From Acaryochloris thomasi RCC1774 (GTDB taxonomy: Bacteria > Cyanobacteriota > Cyanobacteriia > Thermosynechococcales > Thermosynechococcaceae), in the NCBI RefSeq assembly GCF_003231495.1, contig NZ_PQWO01000007.1, positions 1 to 32,000 of the forward strand: a DNA stretch of 32,000 nt, given 5' to 3'. The position numbers and the translations under genes were made by a program. Every line of letters begins with the position of its first letter. Within the stretch, counting starts at the first letter, position 1. Shown here piece after piece: positions 5,512-29,021 of this stretch. Below the pieces are notes generated by a model. It did no database searches and was not told the DNA's origin. It saw only the letters and a list, made by a program, of their open reading frames with translations.

Positions 5512-5512
5512 T

Positions 5513-5544
5513 AAAAAAGCTCAACTCCAGACGGAGCGAGCTTT
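5513..5544. terminator. Putative bidirectional terminator hairpin between the convergent caspase and rqcH-like genes
   Basis: gctcaactccagacggagcgagc forms an interrupted stem (GCTC+CTCC / GGAG+GAGC). It is flanked by A6 upstream and TTT downstream. The U-run is better on the minus strand. Confidence 0.4.
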
Positions 5545-5751
5545 CGTAAGAATCAGTTACGTGATATCTCAAGTGAAGGAGGTCAGACTGAGCGTTCCCA
5601 CACGCGACAGTGACCTTTTGTATAATTCCTCACAGTTTTATCGTAATGTAACAGGCGCAATATTTCTTAATAGATAGATTTTTTGTTTTTTTTTGTGGCT
5701 TTTCAATAGCTAAAACTTATTGATTCGCGAAATTCAAGTCAAAGCTAGCTG

Positions 5752-7485
5752 TTACGCCTTGGGCTGCTGCATTTTAGCCTTCGCGAGCTGCGGCTGTCCC
5801 CAGGTTACTTGCTCATGCTTATAGATCACCATGCCGGGCTGCGCGCCCTTGGGTTTGTAAACATGCTTGGGGCTGGTGTAGACCACAGGAACCTGATGGC
5901 TTTGACGGGCACGACTGTAGTAAGCCACAAAGTGGGCTGCCCATTCAATGTCTGTTTCACTGGCAACCGCGCCTGCGTCTAGGCGCAGAAGGGCATGGCT
6001 ACCGGGTATCTCTTGGGTGTGAAACCACAGGTCATAGCCGGTGGCGACGCTGAAGGTGAGCTGATCGTTTTGGCGATTGTTGCGGCCCACCAGCAGTTCC
6101 CAGCCGTCTGGAGATTGATGGCGAATAAAGTCGGTCTTCGCCTGTGGTTTGGCGACGTGGTCAGGGGTTGGCCAGTAGCCCTGCTCAATTAGCTCTATCC
6201 GGATCTCTTCTAGCGTTTCTAGATCGGCCTCGTTTTTATAGGTTTCGGTCTGCTCAATGGCAACCTCAACTTGATGGAGGTACTGCAGCTCTAGTTCGAC
6301 TTCAGCCAGCAGCGGCTCTAGGCGATCGCGCGATCGCTTTAGCTTTTGATGCCGCTTGTAGAGAGCCTGGGCATTCTGAACGGCGTTCTGCTCAGGATTG
6401 AGCGAGATGGTGCGTGAGGTATCTCCCTCAAAGTCTGGCAGCGTAATCGACTGCATTCCGATTTCCCAGGATTGTAGGTTTGCCATCAGCAGATCGGCCT
6501 GCTGGCGATGCTCGTCGGCGGTTTCAGCGGCCTGAAGCTGCGTATGAAAGCTGTTGGCTTTGATCTGGAGTTTTTTGGCAACGCTGCTGACCTTTTGCTG
6601 GAGCTGATGGCGTAGTTGCTTAAAGACTTGCTGGTTGAGCTGCTGGGTATAGTACTGATCTAAAACCTGATGAATGCTTGGGGCAGGTTGAGTCATCTGC
6701 CAGCCCATGACGGTATAGCCCTCAGTTTGCCAGCCAGGAGTGAAGGTTCCCTGTTTTAAGGCCCGGAGCCAATCCTGCCAAAGGGCGAAGAGCTGTTGCC
6801 ATTGATCAGGGGTGAGCTGATCGGTGTTCTGATCTGCTGATGGTCCTGCTGTTGCCACCATTGATCGAGCTAGGGCTGGACTCAGGCCACGATAGGTGCG
6901 CAGGTTGCGAGCCACGGGGCCAGGAACGAGGGCAACCCGCTCTTGCCAATGTGCTTGAGATTCTTCGAGAGAGGGGACAGGATCGGTGAGGGCGGGGGGT
7001 AAGCTGTAGGGCTGTCCTGTCTGGAGCGGCCGCACCCTCGATTGTTTTTCGCTCACCTGATGGGCGACGGTCACTATTTTTTGTTCAGCGGTGGTCAGGA
7101 TCACATTGCTGTATTTATTCATGACCTCAACGTAGAGATGCCAGGACACCGGATCTTGAGGGCGGCGGGCAAACTGGAGGTCGATGACGCGCTCCCAAGG
7201 TCCTGAGGGTTTGAGCGCCACAAGCGCTAGGCCTTTGAGCTGATGGCGAAGCTGTTCGCTAAAGGTAAAGGTATCTGCTGCTTTGGGAGGGGGCGTGCCG
7301 AGACAGAGGCGTGCGGCTTGGGGGTGCCAAGAAATGGTGAGCCACCCCCGCTGGTCAAGGGTGCGCAATGCTAAGTAGAGCGTGTAGCGGTCGCGTTGAT
7401 AGATCTGCTCGAGGCGGGCAGGGAGCCAGTGCGATCGCAAATCACAGCAGGCGGCACACAAAGTCGTAAAGTCAACGGGCTGCAC
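5752..7485 (-). CDS. NFACT-family protein (FbpA / RqcH-like ribosome quality-control factor)
   Basis: 577 aa. There is an NFACT-N-like N-terminus, a central Gln/Leu-rich coiled-coil region, and a C-terminal NFACT-R (DUF814) signature: DLWFHTQEIPGSHALLR...AAHFVAYYSRARQSHQVPVVYTSPKHVYKPKGAQPGMV. Confidence 0.8.
   Translation of the reverse strand: MQPVDFTTLCAACCDLRSHWLPARLEQIYQRDRYTLYLALRTLDQRGWLTISWHPQAARLCLGTPPPKAADTFTFSEQLRHQLKGLALVALKPSGPWERVIDLQFARRPQDPVSWHLYVEVMNKYSNVILTTAEQKIVTVAHQVSEKQSRVRPLQTGQPYSLPPALTDPVPSLEESQAHWQERVALVPGPVARNLRTYRGLSPALARSMVATAGPSADQNTDQLTPDQWQQLFALWQDWLRALKQGTFTPGWQTEGYTVMGWQMTQPAPSIHQVLDQYYTQQLNQQVFKQLRHQLQQKVSSVAKKLQIKANSFHTQLQAAETADEHRQQADLLMANLQSWEIGMQSITLPDFEGDTSRTISLNPEQNAVQNAQALYKRHQKLKRSRDRLEPLLAEVELELQYLHQVEVAIEQTETYKNEADLETLEEIRIELIEQGYWPTPDHVAKPQAKTDFIRHQSPDGWELLVGRNNRQNDQLTFSVATGYDLWFHTQEIPGSHALLRLDAGAVASETDIEWAAHFVAYYSRARQSHQVPVVYTSPKHVYKPKGAQPGMVIYKHEQVTWGQPQLAKAKMQQPKA
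6322..6337. repeat. Two abutting HIP1 octamers (GCGATCGC GCGATCGC); one of many HIP1 copies in the window
   Basis: Direct reading gives gcgatcgcgcgatcgc. HIP1 is the highly iterated palindrome typical of many cyanobacterial genomes. Confidence 0.8.
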
Positions 7486-7772
7486 TGAAATAAAAACTCA
7501 ACTGATATTTTTGATTAATAGACTTTCATCAATCTATATAAATAAACTCACCCAATTAGGTGATAGGATCCCCGCCTAATCGGGTGAAAAGCCTGATTTC
7601 AAACGTATATAGACGTTAAGCACTGGCACTTTAATGGGGTTTGCCGATACCATGAGAGTAGGGATCGTAATCTAGAGCAATTCTCAAGAAAAAGCGTCTA
7701 TTTCCCATTTATTGGGTGAAGACGAACTGTTCTCATCTTTATTTATATAGCCACCTGCGGGGAGTAAAGTCG

Positions 7773-8039
7773 ATGGATATCAGACTCATTAATATTGGTT
7801 TTGGGAACATTGTCTCTGGTAATCGCGTAATTGCGATTGTCAGCCCAGAGTCAGCACCTATTAAGCGTATCATCACCGACGCCAGAGAGCGGGGCGAGCT
7901 GATTGATGCCACCTATGGTCGGCGAACTCGAGCCGTGATTGTGACCGATTCGGGCCACGTCATTCTCTCGGCGATTCAGCCAGAGACAGTGGCGAACCGT
8001 TTCTTGCTCAACAAAGACAGTCGAGACGAAGATGATTAG
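7773..8039 (+). CDS. remA: RemA-family (DUF370) DNA-binding regulator
   Basis: [77 protein letters not shown] matches the conserved RemA/DUF370 sequence. The ATG at 7773 is preceded by ggag, and the track ORF start at 7716 is probably too long. It sits directly upstream of gmk, as in other bacteria. Confidence 0.9.
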
Positions 8040-8068
8040 GCGGCTCTGTCATTGCATGCGTAATTAAG

Positions 8069-8623
8069 ATGTCGGGGCTTCTCGTGGTCTTAACTGGACC
8101 CAGTGGTGTTGGTAAGGGGACATTGCTGCAGGCTCTCCTGCAGCGTCACCCAGATATCTATGTCTCTGTTTCGGCGACGACCCGCTCGCCGCGTCCCGGT
8201 GAGGTAGATGGTCAGCACTATTACTTTTGGACGCCTGAAAAGTTCCAGGCCATGATTGCAGCGGGAGCATTTTTTGAGTGGGCGCAGTTCGCTGGGAATT
8301 TTTACGGTACTCCGCGCGCGCCGGTCATGCAGCGAGTTGCTCAGGGGCAGCGGGTGATTTTAGAAATTGAACTGGAGGGGGCTAGACAGGTGCGGAAAAC
8401 GGCCCCGGATGCCTTCCAGATTTTCATTTTGCCGCCCTCTGTGGAGGAGCTAGAGCGGCGCATTCGCGATCGCGGTCAGGATGATGAAGGTGCGATCGCA
8501 CGTCGTCTTGCCCGAGCAAAGGTGGAGCTGGCTGCCGCCGATGAGTTTGACCTGCAAATTATGAATGATGATCTACCGACGGCCCTTTCGGCTCTGGAGT
8601 CAGCCCTTTTGGGTTCGCAGTAG
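8069..8623 (+). CDS. gmk: Guanylate kinase
   Basis: 184 aa. It has the P-loop GPSGVGKGT, then [21 protein letters not shown] and [15 protein letters not shown]-type motifs characteristic of Gmk. Confidence 0.95.
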
Positions 8624-8633
8624 TGCTGGTCTC

Positions 8634-9218
8634 TTACCCTGATGTTTCGCAATTGCTGGCTGACAGGGTATTGGGGTTAACGATTTCGGTATAGTCGCCG
8701 ATGCGAACAATTCCCAGTCCGCTCGAAATAGCGAGACAGCGTCCGGTGTTGCCGGGGCGGTAGAAGACGAGCAAATTATTGGTGGTTGTGGTCCCCCTGG
8801 GGGAAAATTCGACAGTGGTACCGTTTGTGAACGCCATGGCGATGCCGGTTTCGTTGTTGGTCAAAATGCTGACCCCTAGCTTTTCAAGATTGCGGGGGCC
8901 AGTGGGCAGGCAGGTCTGTGATGTTCCCTGAACCCGTGCCGTAATTGTATTGGGAACCAGCACACCCAAATCCACTTCACAAATTTGTCCCTGTTTGATG
9001 GCTTCGGACTGCGCTTCTTTGAGTGCGCCTTCCACCTGGGCGATCACGTCATCGACTTTTTTTCGGTTGAGCCATCCTAAAAAGCTGGGGACTGAGATCG
9101 CAGCAAAGATGCCCACAATTAAGCCAATAATCACCATTTCGGTGAGTGTAAAACCGTGCGGGGCCTTTTTATACGTTGTATACGTTAATCGACGGTTTGA
9201 AAGGAGACCCAGCATCAT
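8634..9218 (-). CDS. Prepilin-type pseudopilin, GspH/FimT-like ('T1'); paralog of 15028-15594
   Basis: Leader ...KKAPHG followed by FTLTEMVIIGLIVGIFAAISVPSF, which is the class III signal with Glu5. WLNRKKVDDVIAQVEGALKEAQSEAIKQGQ is shared with the paralog. Confidence 0.85.
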   Translation of the reverse strand: MMLGLLSNRRLTYTTYKKAPHGFTLTEMVIIGLIVGIFAAISVPSFLGWLNRKKVDDVIAQVEGALKEAQSEAIKQGQICEVDLGVLVPNTITARVQGTSQTCLPTGPRNLEKLGVSILTNNETGIAMAFTNGTTVEFSPRGTTTTNNLLVFYRPGNTGRCLAISSGLGIVRIGDYTEIVNPNTLSASNCETSG

Positions 9219-9808
9219 TCGCAGGCAAAGGAGGCGTTGGGGATGATTTCGGAGTAGGAGGTTGCGATCGCAGCCGCATCCATCGTATCAGTGTCATCGA
9301 TAGGCTCCTCGCCCTCTGCGTACACCGCATAGCTCACGCTCAAAACGTTAAAGGGCGCAGTTGTTGCGGGCGACATCACGCGCCGAAGAACATAGGGTCT
9401 TTGACCCATTGCACTCTCTCGATCTAAATCTTGTGGACTAACGCTATCGCCAGTTTCTGAGTCCCCTTCTTTGATCAAGATATCGTCTCGCAGTAGATCG
9501 GCATAGCCCGCTGCTGCATTGCCAGCCGAGCAGCGATTGCTGTGTTCTGTCTCTTGAGGCACCCCACTACTGATGTTTAAGCGACTAGCTTCAAATCGGA
9601 TATTCTCTGCATCTTGCTGCATCCAAGTTGTCGCCTCACTGAGCTCCTGACCTCGAACCTTAAACATTGCGGAAACCACAAATGCCTGTGTGGAAATACC
9701 CACAAAGGTCAGCGTCAGCAAGACCCCCACCAAAACTTCAACCAGAGTAAAACCCTGCTCCATTCGCTTTTTCTGTCTCAGGCTCAAGGCTAATATCAGC
9801 TTATCCAT
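9215..9808 (-). CDS. Prepilin-type pseudopilin, PilV/GspI-like ('V1'); paralog of 15703-16287
   Basis: MDKLILALSLRQKKRMEQG|FTLVEVLVGVLLTLTFVG carries the N-methylation motif with Glu5. The start was trimmed to the ATG at 9808 by analogy with the paralog's leader; the track ORF extends to 9901 and would overlap the upstream gene. The 3' end overlaps T1 by 4 nt. Confidence 0.8.
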   Translation of the reverse strand: MDKLILALSLRQKKRMEQGFTLVEVLVGVLLTLTFVGISTQAFVVSAMFKVRGQELSEATTWMQQDAENIRFEASRLNISSGVPQETEHSNRCSAGNAAAGYADLLRDDILIKEGDSETGDSVSPQDLDRESAMGQRPYVLRRVMSPATTAPFNVLSVSYAVYAEGEEPIDDTDTMDAAAIATSYSEIIPNASFACE

Positions 9809-9873
9809 AGGTGTTTTGTCGATAAATCTTACAAAGGAACTGCACGGATTATCTTCTACTTGAAGTAAAGAAA

Positions 9874-11133
9874 CTAAGGCACAGCCTGCTGAGTCTCCCA
9901 CTGAGAGATCGGTTCTAACTGGGGCGGCAGGACAGCTCCGACGGGAGGACCATTGTTGATAGGATTCACAACAACGCCATTAGTGTCACCATCCCAACTA
10001 TTGATCCAAAAAGCCCCCGTTATTTGGACTGCCGGAGTGCTGGGGTTGGCCGGAGTGCAGTCTCCCGCCGGTGTACCGCCAGAGATGAAATCAACATCAT
10101 AATTAGGGGCATGGAAATGCACGTTGCATAGCACCGAGCCTTCATCGAGCTGAATATCAGACGTGCCGGAGGCATAGATAGTAACTCTAAAGGGATCATT
10201 TGCACCGCAGGGGGTAATTCCATCTGTCTGAACGCATTTTATAGCTTGCCCCCTGAGGTCTATATCTCCGCTTGTCCACAGCTCGACGACAGAACCACTC
10301 CAGATTTCTAAAGAGCGATTGAGCGTAGCGGTCTGATATCGATAGACCGTATTAGCAGGCGGGTTCTCTGCCCCTAGCGGACCACTCGCTGGTACCGCCA
10401 GCGGAGAGGCAGGTAGAGGTTCTATTATGGGTATGCCCTGACCGGACAAAGATTGATCAATCCGAATTAAGTTAGCCGAGGGACCGATATTGAGAGGCGC
10501 TGAACTGCAGTTACCCACGACCGTTCCTTCGATGGCGGGGCTATCGGCAATGGAACCTCTAACCCACACAGTTGCAACTTGATTGACGGGCCGAATTGGG
10601 AGAACAACCTGCACCTGAGAGATTGACTCGCCGGGTTCTCCGGCATTGACGCGCCCCTGCACTGTTAATGTGCCGTTGCTACCAGGGGTTCCCGGAGTGT
10701 CATAGACATAATCAACAACACGAAACTCTCCGTTGAGGGGTTGTGCGCCGGACTCGCTGGGATCGACATTCGGCCAATCCGACCCAGTAGAGAGTAGAGC
10801 AGCCAGTTCAGCGGTATTGACATTCCCAGGGCAGATATTAATGCTACCGAGATTATTCCAGCTTGCAGACCCTCTGTCGGGATACATTGCCAACGTTCGA
10901 TGGCGGTTCAAAAAGGTCTGTACTTTGCTGACGCCGGATTCAGCGGCAGCAAGGCTTTTGGCGGTCGCTTTTTGAGCAGAGGCATTGACCTGATCGTTTT
11001 GAGATCGCACCACCATCGTCACCCCGAGCAACAGCATAATTAGCCCGACGCCAATAGCAACAGGTAAAGCAAAACCATCGTTATCAGGGAACGGGTTCCT
11101 ATGCTCAGTCATAGAATTGTTCCTAGTAAACAT
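9874..11133 (-). CDS. Large pilin-like protein lacking Glu5, PilX/GspK-like or HpsA-like ('X1'); paralog of 16336-17589
   Basis: DNDG|FALPVAIGVGLIMLLLGVTMVVRSQNDQV is a pilin-type hydrophobic N-terminus without Glu5, followed by a ~380-aa Gly/Thr/Asn-rich domain. It shares blocks with X2 (AAESGV..V..FLNR.R, SGSDWP.VDP, GEFR, FHAP.Y.V.F, G.FW.N.W). An alternative start is the ATG at 11112, preceded by aggaa. Confidence 0.75.
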   Translation of the reverse strand: MFTRNNSMTEHRNPFPDNDGFALPVAIGVGLIMLLLGVTMVVRSQNDQVNASAQKATAKSLAAAESGVSKVQTFLNRHRTLAMYPDRGSASWNNLGSINICPGNVNTAELAALLSTGSDWPNVDPSESGAQPLNGEFRVVDYVYDTPGTPGSNGTLTVQGRVNAGEPGESISQVQVVLPIRPVNQVATVWVRGSIADSPAIEGTVVGNCSSAPLNIGPSANLIRIDQSLSGQGIPIIEPLPASPLAVPASGPLGAENPPANTVYRYQTATLNRSLEIWSGSVVELWTSGDIDLRGQAIKCVQTDGITPCGANDPFRVTIYASGTSDIQLDEGSVLCNVHFHAPNYDVDFISGGTPAGDCTPANPSTPAVQITGAFWINSWDGDTNGVVVNPINNGPPVGAVLPPQLEPISQWETQQAVP

Positions 11134-11266
11134 ATATCAACACTGGCGTCTGTCTTTTTTAACCCCTTTTAGACAGGTTCCTCTGGACGGTGAATACTGT
11201 CCAGAGGAATGCTAGCTTGTATATATTCTAAGCTTTTGTGTTGAAAACGTTGCAATGACGTAGGGA

Positions 11267-12532
11267 TCAGTTCACTGTAGGAGTGATAGTGGCCCTAACG
11301 ACTAGATCTTGCATGTCGAAGGCTGAGCTGCTGGTATCCGTTTCACCTAACTCGTAGATAAAGACAACCTCGTTACCGGCTAAGCTAACTTTGCCGTTGG
11401 CATCAGTAATGCTATCGAGATAGCTATCTAAGCTAGTTTGGTTGTCGAACGGGACGTAGTTAGGAACGGTGTCTCCATTCTGCAATGCAATTACTTGAGG
11501 TGAGCTAGAAGCAGAGTTAGCTTCGGTATAACTACCGTTGCAAGTCCCACTGCTAATATCCCCTTCTGAAATTCCGGTGATGTCAAGAGTCGTTCCTGCA
11601 GGAGCGTTGTCCCAGTTATGTACTGCAGCGGCCGAGGAAACTGTCTGAGTTGAGGTTGTGTTGCCAACAGTAAAATTTAAATCTGCACGAGTTGGAATAT
11701 TAGCTCCGCCAGCGCCACAGGTAATGGCTCCACCCACGATTTCAATACGCATCGTGGAGTTTACGCCCGTTTTGATCGTGCCGTTGTTTTCCGTAAAAGT
11801 TGCACCAGATTGAGGAGTATAGGCTACAGGTGTTATTTGTTTTGCCCGCACTGCCATTTGAGAGTTCGTGGCATAGGTATCGGTCTGTTCTAAGACTTTG
11901 TTGATTCTGCCTGTTTGCTGTACTTGAGCAATCTTGCCGGTCGGATCAACACAAACATAAAATCCTGCTGCACCATTACCATTCCAGCCAGTGGGACAGG
12001 TTGGAGTGGTGCCATTGACTTCAATTTTGTCAATCAGAGGCTGATGGGACCAACTACCAGGATTAGCTGCATTGGTATAAGCGCCTGCATCATTCAAATC
12101 AGGTCCCCAACGATAAATAACCTTAGGTCCTTTCCATGTGTCATCAGCTGGATCAGCTAGGTAATAAATAACGGGTTCAGTGGCTTCAGCCATCTGCAAC
12201 ATGAGTACCCGCTGCACATTGGCCACGCCTATTGTGGTTTCAGGGGTAAATTCTGCAGGCACATTGGAGATAGCTGAAACATCTTGGATGATGGACTGTG
12301 AGGCACGTGTTTCGTCTTCAAAAAAAGCCAAGGCTCGATCTAGCTCTACTCGTCGTTCGCTTTTGGCGTTGGCGGTAGTGCTGACATCAATCATTCTGGC
12401 TACACCGTAGCCGCCTGTTGCAACCATCATGAGGGTGACTGCACTGCCCAACAGCAAGCTAGGTAAAGAAAACCCTTTCTCGGAGTGACCAAGGGTATGC
12501 GTTTTGATCTGTTTTAAAATTTGTAGTGACAT
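11267..12532 (-). CDS. Large pilin-like protein, PilW/GspJ-like position ('W1'); paralog of 13121-14680
   Basis: 20-aa leader MSLQILKQIKTHTLGHSEKG followed by FSLPSLLLGSAVTLMMVATGGYG. Conserved blocks shared with W2: ERRVELDRA / ERRAELNRS, GP.V.YR.GP, SW.HQPLIDKI, CPTGW, and the C-terminal F.(M/L)QD.V..(A/I)..TP. Confidence 0.75.
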   Translation of the reverse strand: MSLQILKQIKTHTLGHSEKGFSLPSLLLGSAVTLMMVATGGYGVARMIDVSTTANAKSERRVELDRALAFFEDETRASQSIIQDVSAISNVPAEFTPETTIGVANVQRVLMLQMAEATEPVIYYLADPADDTWKGPKVIYRWGPDLNDAGAYTNAANPGSWSHQPLIDKIEVNGTTPTCPTGWNGNGAAGFYVCVDPTGKIAQVQQTGRINKVLEQTDTYATNSQMAVRAKQITPVAYTPQSGATFTENNGTIKTGVNSTMRIEIVGGAITCGAGGANIPTRADLNFTVGNTTSTQTVSSAAAVHNWDNAPAGTTLDITGISEGDISSGTCNGSYTEANSASSSPQVIALQNGDTVPNYVPFDNQTSLDSYLDSITDANGKVSLAGNEVVFIYELGETDTSSSAFDMQDLVVRATITPTVN

Positions 12533-12976
12533 GAAACTTCGATTTCCTGATTATCTGTAGCGCATAGAGCCTTATGGCTAATGCGGACAATCAGACTGGT
12601 TAAAGATTTGAAAAATCTTTCAAACCATAACCCCCCCCGAAGTCTTGACTGGTGTATGCGCGCTCTCAACAAAGGCCAAACAACTACGGTCAAAATACTG
12701 ACCATATACTTATTATGGCGGGAGATTTTTTAATTGCCTTCCGTACAAATACTGAGGTGCAGACTTTTGGCATGTGCTAAACAGGTCAATCTCGCTTCTA
12801 AAGAAGGATGTTTTTAATCACAAGGCCGATTGCCTAATTGACATAGAGATTCTATCCGGGCTGTATTGATATAGATTTGAATAGCGTCAGCTCACTTTTA
12901 GCCGCTTGCATGCTTTTGAATAATAAAGCTACATCAATTATCGAGTTCTGAGATCAAGCTTTTGTTTATTTGCTAT

Positions 12977-13029
12977 AAAAAAGCTCTCAAAGCCAGAAGG
13001 AAACTAAGATCCAACTGGCTTGAAGAGAG
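12977..13029 (-). terminator. Rho-independent terminator downstream of W2, separating the two pseudopilin modules
   Basis: On the minus strand, CTCTCTTCAAGCCAG...CTGGCTTTGAGAG forms 7+5 bp with a small internal loop, followed by CTTTTTTAT (A-run 12977-12982 on the plus strand). It lies about 90 nt after the W2 stop. Confidence 0.6.
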
Positions 13030-13120
13030 CTAATATAAGGTCTTACAGGTACTAAGGAAAAGGAGAAAACCCTTTTCTAGGATCAAGATCTGTCGGAAGA
13101 AATGTTAGCCTTCCGATTGA

Positions 13121-14680
13121 TTATCTTCGACCACTTCGACCACTTCGACCACTTCGACCACTTCGACCACCTCGACCACTACCCTCATCATTGCTGACTT
13201 GGTTATTATTGGAGTTGCCAGGATCACATCCCTCTGACCCATTGCCGCGTCCCTGATTACAGCTGCTGCCACCGCCATTATCACTATTGCTATCGCTATT
13301 GTTTGCTGCGGTAGTAGTGTCACTGCCTCTTCTACTGCTGCCGCCACGGTCATTGCCACCGCTATTGTTAGCTGCAGGAGTGGTTGTTTCTGTGGTAGTT
13401 GTTTCCGTCGCAGTTGTCGTTGTTGTATCAGGGGTCAAGTTGATATAAAGAACTGCATCTTGAAGGTCGTAGGTTGACCCAGAGTTGTAGTAGTATAGCT
13501 CGAACAACATCAAGGAATCATAGCCGGGGTTCGGTAGCGTTGCTACTCTGTCGCTGTCGATATAACTGTTCAAGAATGAATCTAACGAAGTTCCACCACC
13601 CCATGCAGCCTCAGCTTCAGGAATTGTTTCTCCGTTTAGAACAGTCTTCACAAAGTCTGAATGGCTCGGATTCCCAGAATTTTTTGAGGTGTAGATTGAC
13701 TCAGCTTCGATGTAGATTTCTGTACCTTTTGCCAAATTAGCAATCTGGACTTGGCCATTTGTATTATTACGGTAAAACTGCTCTTGTCTCCAGCCACTAC
13801 CAGGCTCTTTGTAATGGACAGTCTGCAGAGTATCGATAATACAGCTGCTAGAACCACAGGAGCGGATATCTCCGCCTAAGAAGGAGACGGTAATGGTTCC
13901 TGGCGTCTCTAAGGTAAGGGTGCCGCTATCTTGTGTGAGGCCGCCTGTGGGTGCCGAGATCCCGCCTGGGGGAGTATAGGCTACAGTCGTAACTTCTGAG
14001 GATCGAGTTGTCGCGGCAGTCTGAGTTTCATAGGTGTCAGAGTTTTTGCCATGCTCTAGCTCACCCGTGTGGAAGACCTGTGCTTGGCTCCCGTCGTCAG
14101 AAACGCAGGCTCGGAAACCTGTATTGTTGTTAGCTGTCCAGCCTGTAGGACAAGCAAAGCCAGCAACCGCATTGGCATCAATTTTGTCGATTAGAGGTTG
14201 GTGAACCCAAGAGCTAGATGTGTCGGCCACGCCAGTTGCGTTATCAATCGGTGGCCCAAAGCGATAAACGACCTGAGGACCGCGCCAAGTATTGCCGGTA
14301 GGGGCTGCTGTGTAATAGACGACATCTTGTTGTCCATTGTTTTGCAAGACAAGGACTGGAGTGATGGTGCTTGTATCAATACCGCTGGGATAGGTTGTAA
14401 AATCAGCCGGCAAGGTAGCTGTTGCGGCATTGGCGACAATGGCGTCAGCCTGATTCACTTCGTTAGTAATAAAGTCAACGGAGCGGTTGAGTTCTGCGCG
14501 ACGCTCTGCTTGTTCTTCAACCGTCTGGCTGTTTCCAACCATTGCAGAGACGCCTGCTCCCCCAGCAGCAACCATGGCTAGGGTTGCAACGCCTGCGATC
14601 ATTAGATCAGGCAGTGTAGCTCCTAGTTCTGAATTGCCATTGGTGAGCTTTCGTAGCTGTCTAGTAAATTTAGTGTACAT
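13121..14680 (-). CDS. Large pilin-like protein ('W2') with a Thr-rich then Asn/Ser/Gly/Arg-rich low-complexity C-terminal tail ending in (SGR)n
   Basis: Leader MYTKFTRQLRKLTNGNSELG followed by ATLPDLMIAGVATLAMVAAGGAG. The start was trimmed to the ATG at 14680 because the leader length then equals W1's; the track ORF runs to 14794. The tail reads ...TTTTATETTTTETTTPAANNSGGNDRGG...GSGRGGRSGRSGRSGRSGRR. Confidence 0.75.
   Translation of the reverse strand: MYTKFTRQLRKLTNGNSELGATLPDLMIAGVATLAMVAAGGAGVSAMVGNSQTVEEQAERRAELNRSVDFITNEVNQADAIVANAATATLPADFTTYPSGIDTSTITPVLVLQNNGQQDVVYYTAAPTGNTWRGPQVVYRFGPPIDNATGVADTSSSWVHQPLIDKIDANAVAGFACPTGWTANNNTGFRACVSDDGSQAQVFHTGELEHGKNSDTYETQTAATTRSSEVTTVAYTPPGGISAPTGGLTQDSGTLTLETPGTITVSFLGGDIRSCGSSSCIIDTLQTVHYKEPGSGWRQEQFYRNNTNGQVQIANLAKGTEIYIEAESIYTSKNSGNPSHSDFVKTVLNGETIPEAEAAWGGGTSLDSFLNSYIDSDRVATLPNPGYDSLMLFELYYYNSGSTYDLQDAVLYINLTPDTTTTTATETTTTETTTPAANNSGGNDRGGSSRRGSDTTTAANNSDSNSDNGGGSSCNQGRGNGSEGCDPGNSNNNQVSNDEGSGRGGRSGRSGRSGRSGRR
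13125..13178. repeat. 9-bp tandem repeat (cttcgacca x5 plus one variant cctcgacca), in frame, encoding the (G-R-S)n C-terminus of W2
   Basis: Direct reading shows units at 13125, 13134, 13143, 13152 and 13161 (identical) and at 13170 (1 mismatch). Confidence 0.95.
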
Positions 14681-14951
14681 GTTAGTTGTGATCCCCTCGT
14701 AACCTAAGAAATATATCGATGGCTTTGCCAAAAGGCAGTACTTGCTTCTGCTGCTAAAGTAAGTTGCTAGAGCGATCAGAAGCTGGGTAGACAATCATGA
14801 TCAACAGCGATTGTCTGAGCATTTGGTTGACCATTTCTATACGGCAAAGGCTATCAATTTTACTATTACTATTCTTAGAGAAAAATACAGGGGAAGCCTG
14901 CGTAATATTACGGATATTCAAAAGTACGAACACAAGCTGTTTTCGTGACAG

Positions 14952-14981
14952 AGGCTCTAGGGACTGTTTTCCCTAGAGCCT
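14952..14981. promoter_or_regulatory. Perfect 12-bp stem-loop in the T2-W2 intergenic region (terminator, processing or stability element)
   Basis: aggctctaggga (14952-14963), loop ctgttt, tccctagagcct (14970-14981). There is no flanking U-run on either strand. It lies about 45 nt downstream of the T2 stop. Confidence 0.5.
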
Positions 14982-15027
14982 TAGTGATACTGGATGCTTA
15001 AGTGCTGGTTTCGATTATCCTGTTAGA

Positions 15028-15594
15028 TTAATCGGTGATGCAGTTCCCCTCAACTGGGTTGGCTGGTGGGGGATTGGCGCCGGAGTATTCTCCAGTTCTC
15101 AAAAGGCCCAAGCCGCTAGAAATGACCAAGCATCGCATATCGCCAGAACCGTCAGCTTGGTAAACTACGGCAACTTTGTTAGAAGTGGTTGTCCCTTTTG
15201 GTGAAAACACAATGTCATTGCCAGGATTAGATAATTCGACTAGGGCACCAGTGTCATTGCCGGTCTTGCCGTTCGTTCCATCTAGTATACGAACACCTAG
15301 CTTGGATAAATCTCTCGATCCTGTTGTTAGACAGTTGCTTGGATTTGCCGTAACGCTTGCACCAATTGATATCGTGCATTGCTGACTTTGCTTGATGGCC
15401 TCTGACTGACCTTCTTTTACTGCGCCTTCCAATAGGGCTAGTGCGTCATCTACTCGTTTGCTATTCACCCAAGATAAGAAGCTAGGAGCTGCGATCGCAG
15501 CCAAAATGCCAATGATTGCAATCGTGACTAATGTTTCAATTAGGGTAAAGCCTTCATCTTTAACTTTGAGGTGTCGCGGTCTAACAAATAGCAT
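15028..15594 (-). CDS. Prepilin-type pseudopilin, GspH/FimT-like ('T2')
   Basis: MLFVRPRHLKVKDEG|FTLIETLVTIAIIGILAAIAAPSF is a canonical N-methylation motif with Glu5. WVNSKRVDDALALLEGAVKEGQSEAIKQSQ is shared with T1. Confidence 0.88.
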   Translation of the reverse strand: MLFVRPRHLKVKDEGFTLIETLVTIAIIGILAAIAAPSFLSWVNSKRVDDALALLEGAVKEGQSEAIKQSQQCTISIGASVTANPSNCLTTGSRDLSKLGVRILDGTNGKTGNDTGALVELSNPGNDIVFSPKGTTTSNKVAVVYQADGSGDMRCLVISSGLGLLRTGEYSGANPPPANPVEGNCITD

Positions 15595-15702
15595 TTAAAC
15601 TTTCTCCAGTGAGGCAGTAAGAATAGATTGACGATGGGTTATTCACCTATTTCTAGAATGCCCAAGGACCTACCGAGACTAACTTGAACTCCTCGAAAAT
15701 CA

Positions 15703-16287
15703 TTAGCTCGGTTGTGCGGGACAGACCAGCGAGGCATCAGGTAAGAGCTCACTATAGAATGTCGCAACGACACTGTTATCTGCCTGATCAGTAACGGTAT
15801 AGGTGACTGCTAGCCTGTTGTAGGGAGACGTATTCACGTTCGTAAATGCGCGGGCTAAGGTGTAGGGCCGTGAGCCAATCTCACTGTTCATGGTCATTGA
15901 GTTTGCGTTGCCACCGCTTAAGGGGGCATTGGTGACAATGTCATTGTTCAATCTGGCACCATACCCTTCTGTGCTATTGGACCCACCGTCGTCTGCTGAG
16001 TCTCCAAGGCAAGCCAAAAGAAATGGATTATATTCAGTTCCTCCCAAATCAAGCTGGGTTGCACGAACCTTTAAGCTTTCTAAGTCAGCGTTAATCCACT
16101 TATCTGCTTCACTGATCTCCTGGGCACGAACTTTAAGAGCAGTGGCAGCTACAAAAGCCTGCATTGATACAGCGGCAAAAATCAAGACCAGTAAGATACC
16201 AACCAAAACTTCCACTAAGGTAAAACCTTCGTTGGGCTGCTGCCGCTTCAAAAGCAGGGCCTGAATATTGGATCGCTGAACAGGCAT
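15703..16287 (-). CDS. Prepilin-type pseudopilin, PilV/GspI-like ('V2')
   Basis: ...LLLKRQQPNEG|FTLVEVLVGILLVLIFAAVSMQAF. QAFVAATALKVRAQEISEADKW parallels V1's QAFVVSAMFKVRGQELSEATTW. Confidence 0.85.
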   Translation of the reverse strand: MPVQRSNIQALLLKRQQPNEGFTLVEVLVGILLVLIFAAVSMQAFVAATALKVRAQEISEADKWINADLESLKVRATQLDLGGTEYNPFLLACLGDSADDGGSNSTEGYGARLNNDIVTNAPLSGGNANSMTMNSEIGSRPYTLARAFTNVNTSPYNRLAVTYTVTDQADNSVVATFYSELLPDASLVCPAQPS

Positions 16288-16335
16288 AATGGCTATCTTC
16301 CTTTTGTTCGTAATTTTTTAGTTGTTTGTACTTGA

Positions 16336-17589
16336 TTACTGGGCTTGCTCTGTTTGCCAGTCTGCGATGGGTGCCATTTGTGGCAAAGGTTGTGTTGGCG
16401 CTGCCTGCCAGCTTGCTCTGGGAGCATCAAGCACAACTGCGCTCGATGTATTGTCTGTCCAATTGTTCACCCAAAAGACTCCTGTGTTTCGGGTCCCAGC
16501 GCCACAGTCAACAGGTGTGCCCCCTGTCGTATTGTTGAACGTGACATTATAGGTCGGGGCATGGAAGAAGATGTCGCAAATGCTTGTGCCCCTATCGAGG
16601 GTAATAGTAGGTGTCCCTGTCGAAGTAGAGCCGACTCCGTAAATCGTGGCGTTGAAAGGACCACAGCTTGCGCTGGCACCACAGTAATGAACGGCTGATA
16701 ATGCGCTGAGATCGATGTCACCTGTGACCCATATTTCTACGGAGCTACCCTCAGATATTTCAAAGCTGCCGTCTAGTGTGGGCACAACATATTGGTAGGT
16801 GTCGCTACCATCAATAACCCCGCTGCTATCAATGTTGCCTGGCTCTGGCAGTGTTATATCTGTAATGCTTGTTAATGTATTAACGTTGCTACCCGGTTGG
16901 CTAGGAATGCCAGGCATTGTGAGATTTGTTCTTAGGAGGTCGTTGCTAGCCTGAAGACTGACACTGGGGCTAGATCCGCAGGGTGCGATGACGTCTGCAT
17001 CAATGACAGAGTTGCCTGCAATTGTCCCCCCTACCCACAATCCCGCTGTTTGTTTTCTAACGGGGTTAATGGGAATCTCGACTTGAATTTGAGAAATAGC
17101 GTCACCTGCATTAATGCGCCCTTGCACCTCTAGAGTGCCTGTACCCAAGGGAGCATTCGGGGTGCCGCTAGTGTCGGCAGCATAGGTGTAGCTGAGTAAA
17201 CGGAATTCACCTCTGCTCGCATCAGTAGGGTCAACGTCAGGCCAATCACTGCCGCTGGGCTGTAGTTCTCCTAAGTCACTACTAACACTGTTTGCGTTGC
17301 AGCTTTCCAACACATTAGTGACGGAACCATTCCAGCTTCCGGATGGGAGCACTGCTAGAGCGCGATATCGGTTAAGAAAAGCGCGGACTCGATTGACCCC
17401 AGATTCAGCTGCAGATACGCTTTCAGAGGCATCAGCTTGATTAAGAGCACTGACCTGATCGTCTTGAGATCGCAAAACTAAGGTTATGCCTAGCAATAGC
17501 ATGACAAGTCCCATACCTATAGCAACTGGCAGGGCAAAGCCCGCTTCTTTGTTGTCTTGCTTGGGTATTAACCACTTTGTGTATCTCAT
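16336..17589 (-). CDS. Large pilin-like protein lacking Glu5, PilX/GspK-like or HpsA-like ('X2')
   Basis: ...KQDNKEAG|FALPVAIGMGLVMLLLGITLVLRSQDDQV. It is collinear with X1 over its full length (417 vs 419 aa). Confidence 0.78.
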   Translation of the reverse strand: MRYTKWLIPKQDNKEAGFALPVAIGMGLVMLLLGITLVLRSQDDQVSALNQADASESVSAAESGVNRVRAFLNRYRALAVLPSGSWNGSVTNVLESCNANSVSSDLGELQPSGSDWPDVDPTDASRGEFRLLSYTYAADTSGTPNAPLGTGTLEVQGRINAGDAISQIQVEIPINPVRKQTAGLWVGGTIAGNSVIDADVIAPCGSSPSVSLQASNDLLRTNLTMPGIPSQPGSNVNTLTSITDITLPEPGNIDSSGVIDGSDTYQYVVPTLDGSFEISEGSSVEIWVTGDIDLSALSAVHYCGASASCGPFNATIYGVGSTSTGTPTITLDRGTSICDIFFHAPTYNVTFNNTTGGTPVDCGAGTRNTGVFWVNNWTDNTSSAVVLDAPRASWQAAPTQPLPQMAPIADWQTEQAQ

Positions 17590-18279
17590 CTGTTGCTATT
17601 TAAACCTAACTGCGATGAATAGAAACTAACTTTTGAGGTGATAGATAAAACCAGTTTGCTGCTTGATCTGCTACGACCAACTGTATAAATAGTGTTCAGA
17701 TCCGCATCCAAATATTAATCCTGAGGTCTACAGGCTGACGTAGAGCGCAAGAGGCTCAGGCACCCTAAAATAGTCCCCACCCTAAAATGCAGGGAGATGA
17801 CTATGGCGAGTCGCGAGGTTATGCCTACTGCAACTTTGCCTACTTATATGATCAGCAGAGAAACTCGTATCAACTTGAGTAAAATTACTGAACTTGCTGT
17901 ACGACCTCACTGATATCGTCAGTTTTCTCAGTAGTAGAGATAGCCTTTGCGTATAACCCCAGTAACCCCAAATCAAGCTTTCTTTATGATGCCCAAAGCC
18001 TCCGGTCTATCTAGCACCGTTGGAATAACACAGCCGCTTGCTGTTTGGAGCTGCATAGCTAATACCCTACAGCTGCCTGCGGACAAGAGTTTTAAGCGAA
18101 GCCAGAGAACTATTGCGAGTGGTGCAGAGCGTAATCGGCATCACTCGATTGCTTGTGTGAGCATCACCTTGAAGAGCTAGAAATATCACCTGTACGGCTA
18201 GAGAAGCGTCACTGAGTTAACTGTGCGTTGCCGCCATGATAGTCACATGGTTCAAACAACACACACAGGAGACCCAACC

Positions 18280-18870
18280 ATGAAACGTACCGTTCTTTTC
18301 ACCATTACAACTGCTCTTACTCTTTCTGCTGGCTTACCTGCCTTTGCCAATCCTCTTTCTCCCAGTGCTCGCGATGCCGACGACCCACGGGCCATGTGCA
18401 GCGATGTCTTAATTGGAAACAACGTTAAAAACCATATTGTTGAGCAAACTAACGTACAAGAGAAAACAGACATTCACAAATATAACCAGAAAGATATCCG
18501 CAAAACGGCGCGAACTGCAAAGTGGGACAACAGCACCTATGAGCGCTCCACTCGCAAGGGGGGCGGTAGAGGAAATGTGAAGGTTCTCTGGGGCCTTGTC
18601 AGCGCTGGGGGTGGGGGTGATAAAACCACCACTAATCTCTCCAAGACAGCTAATGCTGGGGAAAATACCTTCAACAACTATCAAGATCGTAGCCGTTCTG
18701 GTTTCCGTGACCGCAGCACGTTCTCTGATACCAGCCGGTTCGAAGACTTCAGCACTAGTACTGTTGTAGCGGGTCAAAACTGTGATGCTGTTGTGCAGGC
18801 TGAAGCGGCTAAGCAAATTAATCGACAGAACAATAACTCTGCTGCTGCAGGTCACTTTCTATCCTGGTAA
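18280..18870 (+). CDS. Secreted hypothetical protein (Sec signal peptide; Asn/Ser/Thr/Arg/Gly-rich)
   Basis: MKRTVLFTITTALTLSAGLPAFA|NP is a signal peptide. The ATG at 18280 is preceded by agga, so the track ORF start at 18223 is probably too long. No family was recognised. Confidence 0.6.
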   Translation: MKRTVLFTITTALTLSAGLPAFANPLSPSARDADDPRAMCSDVLIGNNVKNHIVEQTNVQEKTDIHKYNQKDIRKTARTAKWDNSTYERSTRKGGGRGNVKVLWGLVSAGGGGDKTTTNLSKTANAGENTFNNYQDRSRSGFRDRSTFSDTSRFEDFSTSTVVAGQNCDAVVQAEAAKQINRQNNNSAAAGHFLSW

Positions 18871-18959
18871 GGCTTTGTAATCAGGGATAGTTGCTATCCC
18901 TGGTTGTCTTTCTTTTGTCTATTTCTGTTGCGCTCACTGCTATTTTCGGAGAAATCATC

Positions 18960-19847
18960 ATGTATAAGCAAGCTGCTGGTGTTGCGATCGCACTATCAAC
19001 CATCACATCGGTCACTTTACCTGCGTTCGCTCAGTCCACTCCTAGTTCTTATCAAGCCGCATCATCCGTCAGCACGATTCCGGCTTCCACAGCATTGACG
19101 GTTACCTTTCCCGGCAATATGGTCGTGAATGCCAAGAAAAAGCAAGATTATCCGATGACCTTGTTTTTAGCCCAGCCCCTTTTTGATAGCCAGGGACAGC
19201 AGGTTGTTGCAGCTAATTCACCCATTGTTGCGAAGATGACGCCGACGAAGGGAGGCGCGCAGATCGTTGCTGAATCTTTAGTGATTAATGGCCGAGTGGT
19301 TGCGATCCAGGCTTCGAGTCCCTTGATTCCTAGCTATAGTGTGACTCAAACTAGTAGCTATCAGTCTGCCCGCGAAGGTAGCGCCATGTTTGCCAACATT
19401 GCGGGCGGAATTACCGGCGGAGCGACGGGGAGCGCAAATGCTTTTAACCGAGCTTCGTTTCTGGGCGGTGGTCTAGGTGCCTTGGCGGGTCTAGCGTCGA
19501 GCAAGAAGCATAAGGTGGTTGAGGTTCCGGCAGGCAGTATCTATGTTCTGACGCTCGAAGCGCCGATTGCAGTGGGTGGAGCGCCCCAGCCCGCAGTACA
19601 AACTGCCACCCAGCCAACATCTCAGTTTCAGTTCAAAACAGAGCAGGAATATGGCCATGGACTCGCACAATTGCTGCAGGCTTATCAGCGGGGTGAAGCG
19701 TCGGCGGCTCAAGTCTTAGATCGGGTTCGTGCGGCTGATCTTTATGCAACGAAACAGCTACAGGCACCGCTCTATCCTCCTGTGGCTCAGCGTCAGTTGG
19801 TGAAGCAGATTGTCGGATTTGAGTATGCAATTGATGGCGCGATCTAA
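18960..19847 (+). CDS. Secreted hypothetical protein with an internal glycine-zipper segment
   Basis: MYKQAAGVAIALSTITSVTLPAFA|QS is a signal peptide. The ATG at 18960 is preceded by ggagaa. It contains GGITGGATGSANAFNRASFLGGGLGALAGLASS. There is a faint resemblance to the TrbI/VirB10-type beta-domain, which was not established. Confidence 0.6.
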   Translation: MYKQAAGVAIALSTITSVTLPAFAQSTPSSYQAASSVSTIPASTALTVTFPGNMVVNAKKKQDYPMTLFLAQPLFDSQGQQVVAANSPIVAKMTPTKGGAQIVAESLVINGRVVAIQASSPLIPSYSVTQTSSYQSAREGSAMFANIAGGITGGATGSANAFNRASFLGGGLGALAGLASSKKHKVVEVPAGSIYVLTLEAPIAVGGAPQPAVQTATQPTSQFQFKTEQEYGHGLAQLLQAYQRGEASAAQVLDRVRAADLYATKQLQAPLYPPVAQRQLVKQIVGFEYAIDGAI

Positions 19848-25141: not shown

Positions 25142-26158
25142 GTGACGACCACAATTCCCGCAGCCAAAGAAGCAGAAGAATTTCCCTGGTGGGCTGGTAA
25201 TGCCCGCTTTGCAGACGCTTCAGGGCAGCTACTCGGTGCCCATGTCGCCCATGCAGGGCTGATTGTCTTCTGGGCCGGAGCCTACACCTTATTTGAGTTA
25301 GGTCGCTTCGACCCGGCCCAACCCATCTATTTACAGGGGTTGATTCTGCTTCCCAACTTGGCCCGCTTCGGGTTGGGACTGGGTGACGCAGGGCAGATTA
25401 TCGACCCCCATCCCTACTTTGTTGTGGGTGTTTTGCACCTGATTAGCTCTGCCTTTCTCGGATTTGGTGGCCTGTATCACGCACTCAAAGGTCCGGCTCA
25501 GCTTGAAGATCGATTCCCGCGCTATGGCTATCGCTGGGATGACCAGAAAGCGATGACCAATATCTTAGGGACTCACCTCATCCTGTTGGGGCTGGGGGCA
25601 GGACTGCTTGTGCTAAAGGCGACTAAGTTTGGGGGACTCTACGATTCGAGCTTGGGTCAACTGCACCTCGTCACGAATCCCACGCTGAATCCGGTGGTGA
25701 TTGTGGGCTATCTGCTGGGCCTCCAGAGTCCAGACTGGATTGCGGGCGTCACCTCTCTTGAAGATATTGTCGGCGGTCATGTTTGGGTCAGTGTTCTCTG
25801 TATCGGAGGTGGTCTGTGGCACTGTGCCACGAAGCCGTTCCCTTGGGCACAGCGATTGTTCACCTGGTCCGGTGAAGCATACCTGTCCTATAGCCTTGGT
25901 GCGTTGGCCCTAATGAGCTTTGTTGCCACCTACTTTGTGGCGGTCAATAGCGTGGCGTATCCCACAGAATTTTATGGGCCTAGCTTGAGCCTAGTTTTTG
26001 GGCAGGTGCCTGAATTTGTCTCAGTGGATGGTCAATTGACCACACGCGTCTGGCTCGCTAATTCCCATTTCTGGCTTGGGTTCTTCGTACTTCAGGGTCA
26101 TCTCTGGCATGCTCTGCAGGCCCGAGGGCTCAACTTAAATCGCGAACTTTTACGCTAA
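25142..26158 (+). CDS. CP43-like chlorophyll-binding antenna protein (IsiA/Pcb/CBP family), paralog 1
   Basis: 338 aa. [40 protein letters not shown]...[24 protein letters not shown]...[13 protein letters not shown] has six-helix CP43 homology but lacks the large lumenal loop E of PsbC. GTG start with GAGGA 10 nt upstream. Confidence 0.9.
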
Positions 26159-26189
26159 TTTCTTGCACTCTCAGCGTTAGGAAAAAACT

Positions 26190-27692: not shown

Positions 27693-27751
27693 CCCCCGAT
27701 CTAGATTTTGAGGATGTCGCTCTTCTAACTGCTTAGCTGAGTCCTCAATGT

Positions 27752-27780
27752 GCCTGCGGCTGTGGCACGCAGCTGCAGGC
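27752..27780 (+). promoter_or_regulatory. Stem-loop between the IsiA-PsaL fusion gene and isiA (weak terminator, attenuator or processing site)
   Basis: gcctgcggctg / cagctgcaggc forms an 11-bp stem (one G-U) with a 7-nt loop, followed by the pyrimidine-rich ttctctcc rather than a clean U-run. Confidence 0.4.
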
Positions 27781-27827
27781 TTCTCTCCATCGTGTCCCTA
27801 TCTCTGACTATAAGGAGTGTTTTTTAG

Positions 27828-28859: not shown

Positions 28860-29021
28860 TCATCGTTATTCAAGGCTAGTTCAAGCAGAACGCAATCAAT
28901 CAATCGGCAGAAGCTTTAGGGTTCTCTCTTGACAGACCTTCTGCTTAAACCCAAGGCGTCATGCAGACTCTCCTCTGTGGCGCCTTTCTCATTGACATCA
29001 AAACTTTGAGGAATTCCCACC

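Follow-up and report, generated by a model that had tools for sequence, protein, structure and literature searches.

Two adjacent sets of minor-pilin genes in the marine cyanobacterium Acaryochloris thomasi RCC1774

What would a cyanobacterium that is reported to be non-motile do with two sets of minor pilins? The question is raised by eight consecutive minus-strand open reading frames (ORFs) at positions 8634-17589 of a 32,000-nucleotide stretch of the Acaryochloris thomasi RCC1774 genome (positions 1 to 32,000 of contig NZ_PQWO01000007.1, hereafter the window). Each begins with a prepilin-type leader, and the eight fall into four families, T, V, X and W, with two members each. We consider it likely that they encode two alternative X-V-T-W complexes that would prime and cap the type IV pili (T4P) of one machine encoded elsewhere. 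A previous sequence-only reading of the window had proposed two alternative tip complexes, and the proposal matches the published cyanobacterial model (10.64898/2026.02.12.705559).

Eight prepilin-like genes in four families

The coordinates given in the sequence-only reading hold, and all eight ORFs could be verified to start with a basic leader of 15-22 aa that ends in Gly and precedes a hydrophobic helix. For six of the eight proteins, the identical sequence is present among the A. thomasi entries of GenBank/RefSeq; the locus tags run from C1752_02693 to 02700. In the direction of transcription, the genes and the elements between them are as follows (the arrow marks the predicted cleavage site).

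16336-17589, minus strand: X2, PilX-type minor pilin, 417 aa, G↓FALPV with Pro at +4 and a hydrophobic +5; beta-solenoid within the pilin fold.
15703-16287, minus strand: V2, PilV-like minor pilin, 194 aa, G↓FTLVE; directly downstream of X, as at related loci.
15028-15594, minus strand: T2, FimT/GspH-family minor pilin, 188 aa, G↓FTLIE.
13121-14680, minus strand: W2, PilW/GspJ-like, 519 aa from the ATG at 14680, G↓ATLPD; pilin domain, beta-sandwich and tail.
13124-13417, minus strand: C-terminal tail of W2 (aa 422-519); Thr-rich linker, CNQGRGNGSEGCDPGN, then (GRS)n-RR.
12976-13031, minus strand: hairpin with U6 resembling an intrinsic terminator, ~90 nt past the W2 stop; from folding.
11267-12532, minus strand: W1, PilW/GspJ-like, 421 aa, G↓FSLPS with Ser at +5; tail-less.
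11178-11209, minus strand: hairpin of 11 perfectly paired bp in the W1-X1 spacer (133 nt), with no U-tract; from folding.
9874-11133, minus strand: X1, PilX-type minor pilin, 419 aa (412 aa from the second Met), G↓FALPV.
9215-9808, minus strand: V1, PilV-like minor pilin, 197 aa, G↓FTLVE.
8634-9218, minus strand: T1, FimT/GspH-family minor pilin, 194 aa, G↓FTLTE; start codon overlapping the stop of V1.

Start codons differ among the public annotations, some of which lose the prepilin leader: T1 in RefSeq (167 aa) starts at Met28, downstream of G↓FTLTE, and X2 in GenBank (388 aa) starts within the hydrophobic helix, the long forms of both being those with the conserved leader. For W2, the longest possible ORF extends to 14794; the ATG at 14680 is backed by a ribosome-binding site and upstream block that are common to its ortholog in a metagenome-assembled genome (MAG) described below.

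The arrangement in four paralog pairs was borne out by blastp. T1 and T2 are 48% identical (E 1.6e-42), V1 and V2 36% (E 3e-36), X1 and X2 41% over their full length (E 1.4e-86), and W1 and W2 33% over ~425 aa (E 1.6e-61). E values are thus of the order of 1e-36 to 1e-86 within families, while similarity between families is limited to the N-terminal helix.

Hidden Markov models (HMMs) of Pfam and NCBIfam were used to scan the proteins, and motifs were counted over 54-87 aligned ORFs per family from related loci. Both T proteins score above the cut-off of 21 bits for Pfam GspH (PF12019; T1 27.1 and T2 25.2 bits) and are members of that family, the RefSeq name for them being "GspH/FimT family pseudopilin". 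For N_methyl (PF07963/TIGR02532; cut-off 21.2 bits), T2 (33.5 bits), V2 (24.3) and V1 (21.3) lie above the cut-off; T1, at 14.5 bits, lies under it, yet the motif G↓FTLTE is there. The exact V1 sequence is found in NCBI as a prepilin-type cleavage/methylation protein. The T and V motifs conform to G↓FTL(I/V/T)E, in which Glu +5 is invariant (79/79 T and 54/54 V ORFs), and Gly -1 is near-invariant in all four families. The motif is of the class III prepilin type and places these proteins among the type IV pilin-like proteins; cleavage by PilD is predicted.

X1 and X2 are, as judged from a structural model and from family motifs, members of the cyanobacterial beta-solenoid PilX family. In the AlphaFold2 model of X2 (predicted local distance difference test score, pLDDT, 78; pTM 0.71), a long N-terminal helix leads into a pilin sheet and then into a beta-solenoid of ~170 residues; a final strand completes the fold. 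A Foldseek search of the PDB with this model returned Thermus ComZ (6qvi; E 8e-4, probability 0.90) as the top match, with ice-binding proteins after it. The model and these matches thus point to the architecture described for cyanobacterial PilX. ComZ of Thermus thermophilus is a competence-associated tip pilin in which, as in X2, the pilin fold is broken by a large beta-solenoid, although identity is ~10%, the TM-score is low (0.2) and a profile search of the X family against PDB sequences found nothing meaningful and no sequence-level relation. The X family is large (782 clusters at 50% identity for E <= 1e-3, 343 for E <= 1e-30), and its members are frequently labelled PilX in JGI/UniProt. 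Pfam DUF7305 matches 27 of 41 sampled members, with a weak match for X1 (E 0.027) and none for X2; a broad profile of 41 X sequences returned close cyanobacterial relatives only. Position +5 is always hydrophobic in this family (L/V/M/I; Val in X1 and X2), and Pro +4 occurs in 53 of 54 gap-free sequences. N_methyl matches neither X nor W although Gly -1 and the helix are present, Glu5 being absent.

The W proteins have homologs (35-38% identity) that NCBI and JGI name PulJ/GspJ or PilW. The AlphaFold2 model of W1 (pLDDT 86.5) consists of an N-terminal helix with pilin sheets (residues 1-230) and a well-predicted beta-sandwich (245-420). A profile search of the W family against PDB sequences gave nothing meaningful. 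The motifs of W1 and W2 were described as non-canonical in the sequence-only reading, and the lack of Glu is peculiar to these two proteins: in their family Glu +5 is the norm (78 of the 84 positions without gaps in an alignment of 87 ORFs), with Asp in 4. W2 has Asp; Ser in W1 is the sole case among the 87, and the MAG ortholog of W1 has Glu. W1 is the best conserved of the eight genes (74% identical to that ortholog). Together, the scores of T and V, the names of the W homologs and the pilin-like model of X2 support the minor-pilin identity proposed for these proteins.

It was also proposed that the C-terminal halves of X and W diverge strongly between the paralogs. This applies to W, in which the N-terminal part is ~39% identical and the C-terminal domain ~23%, with a 98-aa tail extra in W2; in X only an early portion of the solenoid is affected (17/74 identical in aligned columns 201-280), after which the last 160 aligned columns are again ~45% identical. 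Within its C-terminal domain, W2 reads IRSCGSSSC where ITCGAGG is conserved. In the tail of W2, a Thr-rich linker precedes the conserved motif CNQGRGNGSEGCDPGN (Cys-x10-Cys), and the end, (GRS)n-RR, is encoded by a 9-bp tandem repeat at 13125-13180 (6.2 copies, 95% matches). The 9-bp unit is in frame, so that a change in copy number could alter the length of the tail. The Cys motif aligns with the tails of many W homologs, in which another Cys pair and a Lys-rich terminus are often present, and within the data searched it was seen in W-family proteins only (6 of 90 W ORFs at the loci and 17 database matches). In the full-length scan of W2 against Pfam and NCBIfam the tail had no match above cut-off, the nearest being a weak New_glue match (16 versus 31 bits). 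The GRxR tail of FimT is known for DNA binding and offers a comparison; that the basic, flexible tail of W2, carried by a tip subunit of a competence-lineage set, captures DNA is speculation on our part. The conserved C-terminal tail of some PilW proteins is not discussed in the papers cited here, and the Cys-motif/Arg-rich tail of W2 and the Ser +5 of W1 may be new details.

Lineage of the two sets and their likely role

Cyanobacterial pilins have been classified across 90 genomes in a recent preprint (Schuergers et al. 2026, bioRxiv 10.64898/2026.02.12.705559), in which FimT, PilW, PilV and PilX make up the core priming complex. Two lineages are distinguished there: an EPS lineage with an expanded, HpsA-like PilX (Synechocystis PilA9-12 and the Nostoc hps locus) and a Com lineage with a smaller PilX (PilA5-8 with PilX1-3, and PilA3/PilW/RntA/RntB of Synechococcus elongatus). 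Either set alone primes pili in Synechocystis, the filaments being morphologically different; in Thermosynechococcus, competence and motility are separated by the Com and EPS loci; and S. elongatus UTEX 3055 has two Com-type sets, A. marina multiple sets (10.64898/2026.02.12.705559). In the portion of the supplement of that preprint available to us, Acaryochloris is not mentioned. The PilX-like proteins, and a role of RntA, RntB, PilW and PilA3 in competence, were known before 2026: transformation of S. elongatus needs PilW as well as RntA, a protein of the Com-type set that is related to the PilX-like Slr0226 (PMC7125226). Synechocystis PilX1-3 and PilA12 have also been studied, and ComZ provides a solved analogue. 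The statement that the X and W subunits have no characterised structure or function, made from the sequence, has thus been overtaken by the literature. Since the four families, the PilX fold and the occurrence of multiple sets have already been described in cyanobacteria, the locus is a further instance of a layout published in 2020-2026 and no new kind of system.

By homology with GspH-I-J-K of type II secretion systems (T2SS), with FimU-PilVWX of T4P and with the proteins of the Synechocystis and Thermosynechococcus experiments, a mechanism can be proposed. Each protein would be cut behind its conserved Gly by a prepilin peptidase encoded elsewhere. In the inner membrane, a single subunit from each of the families X, V, T and W would then combine into a four-subunit complex. 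This complex would act as the primer when the shared PilB/C/M/N/O/Q machine polymerises the major pilin, and would stay at the tip of the pilus. X would cap the tip, because it is devoid of Glu5 and carries a bulky beta-solenoid. The two sets would provide two tips on the same machine and hence functionally different filaments, one set probably serving DNA uptake and the other probably adhesion, aggregation/flotation or secretion-linked behaviour.

The systems from which this mechanism is drawn resemble the window to different degrees. FimU-PilV-PilW-PilX(-PilY1) and GspH-I-J-K share with it the GspH domain in T and, as predicted for the two sets, a four-subunit priming/tip complex with a tip subunit devoid of Glu5; unlike them, the window has no PilY1, another gene order and an X far larger than Pseudomonas PilX or GspK, and its proteins score under the cut-off of every NCBIfam equivalog. 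Com-type sets, including T. vulcanus tll2333-35, are closer: they comprise the same four families and a small beta-solenoid PilX with a hydrophobic +5, have X directly upstream of V, lie away from the pilus motor and are known in more than one copy per genome. Compared with these reference proteins by description, the window differs in having two sets head to tail within 9 kb, with the PilW genes adjacent, and its W proteins differ in the C-terminal beta-sandwich of ~180 aa, in the Cys-motif and Arg-rich tail of W2 and in the Ser +5 of W1.

Might the eight proteins instead form T2SS-like pseudopili, which push proteins through a secretin without making long pili, as in the biofilm-regulating secretion of S. 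elongatus? The T proteins are of the GspH family, W homologs bear the names PulJ/GspJ, the composition of the sets mirrors GspH-I-J-K and A. thomasi is non-motile. However, no gene for GspD/E/F or GspG lies nearby in the window, and the T2SS equivalogs of NCBIfam are far under their cut-offs (gspH 24-33 bits against 80; gspI and gspJ ~14 bits, for T2 only). The cyanobacterial homologs that have been studied act on PilA1 T4P filaments. We regard this alternative as unlikely; it also overlaps with the two-complex reading, as the machinery is shared.

A second alternative is that the proteins are Hps-type (EPS-type) pseudopilins for polysaccharide secretion, like hpsA-D of filamentous cyanobacteria, a resemblance suggested in the sequence-only reading. 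It is right as far as the superfamily goes: Hps proteins are the EPS-type branch of it, and HpsA-D of Nostoc punctiforme, like Synechocystis PilA9-12, share with the window the four-subunit logic and a solenoid in PilX_EPS. At the level of the HMMs it fails. The NCBIfam equivalog cut-offs are 400 bits for HpsA (NF038301), 150 for HpsB (NF038303) and 200 for HpsC (NF038304). Against these, X1 and X2 score 13.1-14.7 bits with HpsA (E ~0.01), over the first ~60 positions only, i.e. the N-terminal helix; V2 and T2 score 17.7-21.4 bits with HpsB; V and W, including both W1 (E 2e-5) and W2, score 15.2-24.4 bits with HpsC; and for HpsD the NCBIfam scan returned no match for the window proteins. With 13-24 bits against cut-offs of 150-400, membership in the Hps pseudopilins was rejected.

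Size and the gene sets of relatives also speak against Hps-type proteins. X has ~420 aa, whereas PilX_EPS is much larger (773 to ~1500 aa): Synechocystis PilA12, of EPS type, has 773 aa, the HpsA model 1503 positions and the forms of relatives 810-834 aa. On one related metagenomic contig (L085), orthologs of X1-V1-T1 are adjoined by a divergent set of T, W and X genes, whose products have 208, 381 and 810 aa. Three internal stretches of this 810-aa PilX match HpsA (E 5e-17), and in a run with the X-family HMM it scores 30 bits against >335 for the orthologs of X1/X2, which sets the HpsA-like protein clearly apart from X1 and X2. A. marina MBIC11017 has the same layout, with genes for 211, 386, 834 and 339 aa on one strand, divergent from X452-V174-T192-W416; the comparison with HpsA covered the 810-aa protein of L085. 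Finally, A. thomasi is unicellular and non-motile. An Hps-type identity is accordingly very improbable. X is small and not HpsA-like, it adjoins V (homologs of PilX1-3 are reportedly in synteny with homologs of PilA5), and the EPS-type sets of relatives offer a contrast; for these reasons both sets probably belong to the small-PilX, Com-type lineage, an assignment made by exclusion and contrast and not by direct comparison with PilA5, RntB, RntA or PilX1-3.

Several points weigh against two alternative tip complexes, the indirect route of this assignment being one. Neither X1 nor X2 has a match above cut-off in Pfam or NCBIfam, and Pfam PilX_N does not match; nor do W1 and W2 with the same model sets, which include gspJ and PilW. 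Foldseek with the whole W1 model found no significant match in the PDB, only weak FN3/beta-sandwich noise, and W1, without an acidic +5, is unusual for a subunit off the very tip. As had been noted from the sequence, a domain scan of the other ORFs of the window detects no major pilin, PilB/T, PilQ or PilD. Expression, cleavage and complex formation in A. thomasi are predicted from the genes alone. Lastly, the organism is described as unicellular, non-motile, planktonic and sheathed (PMC6002478), so that roles in competence, aggregation/flotation or secretion are likelier than one in twitching motility.

Gene order and apparent exchange among relatives

We obtained 80 genomic loci through the conserved W motif and classified their ORFs with iterated HMMs; as the loci were fetched through W, the sample is biased to sets with a W gene. 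X-V-T-W is the usual order in the loci of Acaryochloris and Thermosynechococcaceae, Chamaesiphon has V-T-X-W, and W is divergent from X-V-T-T in Pleurocapsales. The stromatolite MAG al_S4C752_1 contains orthologs of all eight genes at 47-74% identity, each pairing being recovered at 100% bootstrap. Because each gene has its own MAG ortholog, the duplication predates that split. The full order X2-V2-T2-W2-W1-X1-V1-T1 is found on a metagenomic contig (L087) at 36-61% amino-acid identity (52-61% without the W2 counterpart). That the sets might be redundant copies, or one of them decaying, with no functional specialisation, draws on the presence of same-family paralogs in one locus, the loss of Glu5 in W1 and the diverged C-terminal domain of W2, but is hardly credible given eight intact ORFs, the separate MAG orthologs, the gene order kept in L087 and paralogs that are only 33-50% identical and must therefore both have been long retained.

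The sequence-only reading divided the eight genes into two modules, X-V-T-W and a permuted W-X-V-T. This division is not upheld by the relatives. In the MAG, W1 goes with W2: X2-V2-T2-W2-W1 form one block, followed by the unrelated petL and gatB, and X1-V1-T1 are found on a different contig, where their neighbours are gmk, remA and the genes for the NFACT and caspase-domain proteins, exactly as in the window. L085 has X1-V1-T1 (73-76% identical to the window genes) without a W on the same strand, and another locus (L086) has a W1-like gene (58% identical) alone amid unrelated genes. X1 has orthologs at 50% identity in L003, 73% in L085 and 48% in L087; gmk is convergent to T1 in the window and likewise in L003 and L085. 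In the neighbour-joining tree, W1 joins the W genes that belong to X2-like modules, a grouping with only 42% bootstrap that was not relied on. Judged from these gene orders, the conserved blocks are X2-V2-T2-W2-W1 and X1-V1-T1 with gmk, W1 being apparently mobile, and the left module would be more aptly called an X-V-T set devoid of W that chances to follow a free-standing W. Since a quartet needs one W, the simplest pairing would join each W to the set of its own number: W2 most likely serves set 2, W1 most likely set 1 unless both sets share it.

The minus-strand intrinsic terminator proposed between W2 and W1 is recovered as a hairpin at 12982-13031 followed by U6 (-28.5 kcal/mol, z = -4.5, 0 of 200 shuffles equally good). 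The W1-X1 spacer also folds well (11125-11275; -41 kcal/mol, z = -3.8) and contains the 11-bp hairpin without a U-tract, which might stabilise the RNA or terminate transcription weakly. Upstream of W2 and of W1, blocks are conserved with the MAG. These upstream blocks, the terminator after W2 and the W1-X1 hairpin together suggest that the eight-gene stretch comprises several transcription units. Sites of the CRP type (TGTGA-N6-TCACA) upstream of the sets gave no signal (14 matches versus 13.5 expected), and a generic promoter/terminator scan, by which the long-loop terminator was missed, gave counts not above shuffled controls.

Upstream of X2, two plus-strand genes at 18223-18870 and 18891-19847 (orf215 and orf318) encode Sec-signal proteins without Pfam matches. 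They are 72% and 61% identical to L085 genes (390-1022 and 1-261) that trail the EPS-type T-W-X810 set. Between X1 and orf215/orf318, L085 thus has an EPS-type set and A. thomasi has X2-V2-T2-W2-W1, in opposite orientation. From gene content, this looks like a replacement between Com-type and EPS-type cassettes at a conserved site. A fuller reading combines these elements, and we put it forward as tentative, its chances being small: the locus would be a swappable cassette site, with X1-V1-T1-gmk as one border and orf215 and orf318 as the other, in which X2-V2-T2-W2-W1 has replaced an EPS-type set; the W2 tail would be an undescribed ligand-capture module of the tip, whose (GRS)n end might vary in length and bind DNA like the GRxR tail of FimT; and W1 would be a free-standing PilW for the W-less X1-V1-T1.

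Two further observations concern minor-pilin sets in relatives. Plasmid pMB03 of Acaryochloris sp. 'Moss Beach' (NZ_CP071720.1) carries at 3752-9308 a remote X homolog (27% identical to X2), then three genes annotated as prepilin-type/type II secretion, with one more prepilin-type gene upstream; this set fits a movement of minor-pilin sets between replicons. At the MAG locus L001, a ComFB-domain gene and a Response_reg+DUF3685 gene (4010-4381 and 7386-9191), both absent from the window, are located upstream of the X2-type block. The ComFB family is reported to consist of cyclic di-GMP receptors that regulate cyanobacterial pilus functions.

The rest of the window and what the locus means

The other ORFs of the window encode a guanylate kinase (gmk), RemA, an NFACT protein, a caspase-domain protein, a GNAT protein, acyltransferases, an ArsR regulator, an ABC transporter, four CP43/IsiA-like proteins and a flavodoxin; several have no Pfam match. 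Flanking gmk are the genes for the caspase-domain protein (Peptidase_C14 and DUF4384; 3307-5511, plus strand), NFACT (5752-7485, minus strand) and RemA (7716-8039, plus strand). The four CP43/IsiA/Pcb-like genes stand in tandem at 25142-30164 (plus strand), that at 26190-27692 being a fusion with a PsaL domain, and the flavodoxin gene is next (30695-31210, plus strand). Rfam IsrR matches each of the four antisense, inside the gene, at 70-98 bits; the probable reason for these matches is resemblance to the coding sequence of isiA, and four antisense RNAs do not follow from them.

Beyond the published picture, which dates from 2020-2026 and is left unchanged in general, the locus adds only the apparent cassette replacement and the PilW tail. 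In the relatives, minor-pilin sets appear to act as exchangeable cassettes, as seen in the exchange of Com-type for EPS-type sets, the orphan PilW and the plasmid-borne set. As a compact example of the model of "two priming complexes, one machine", from a marine cyanobacterium that is no model organism and is reported to be non-motile, the A. thomasi locus is useful for asking what role a second Com-type set has in the absence of surface motility.

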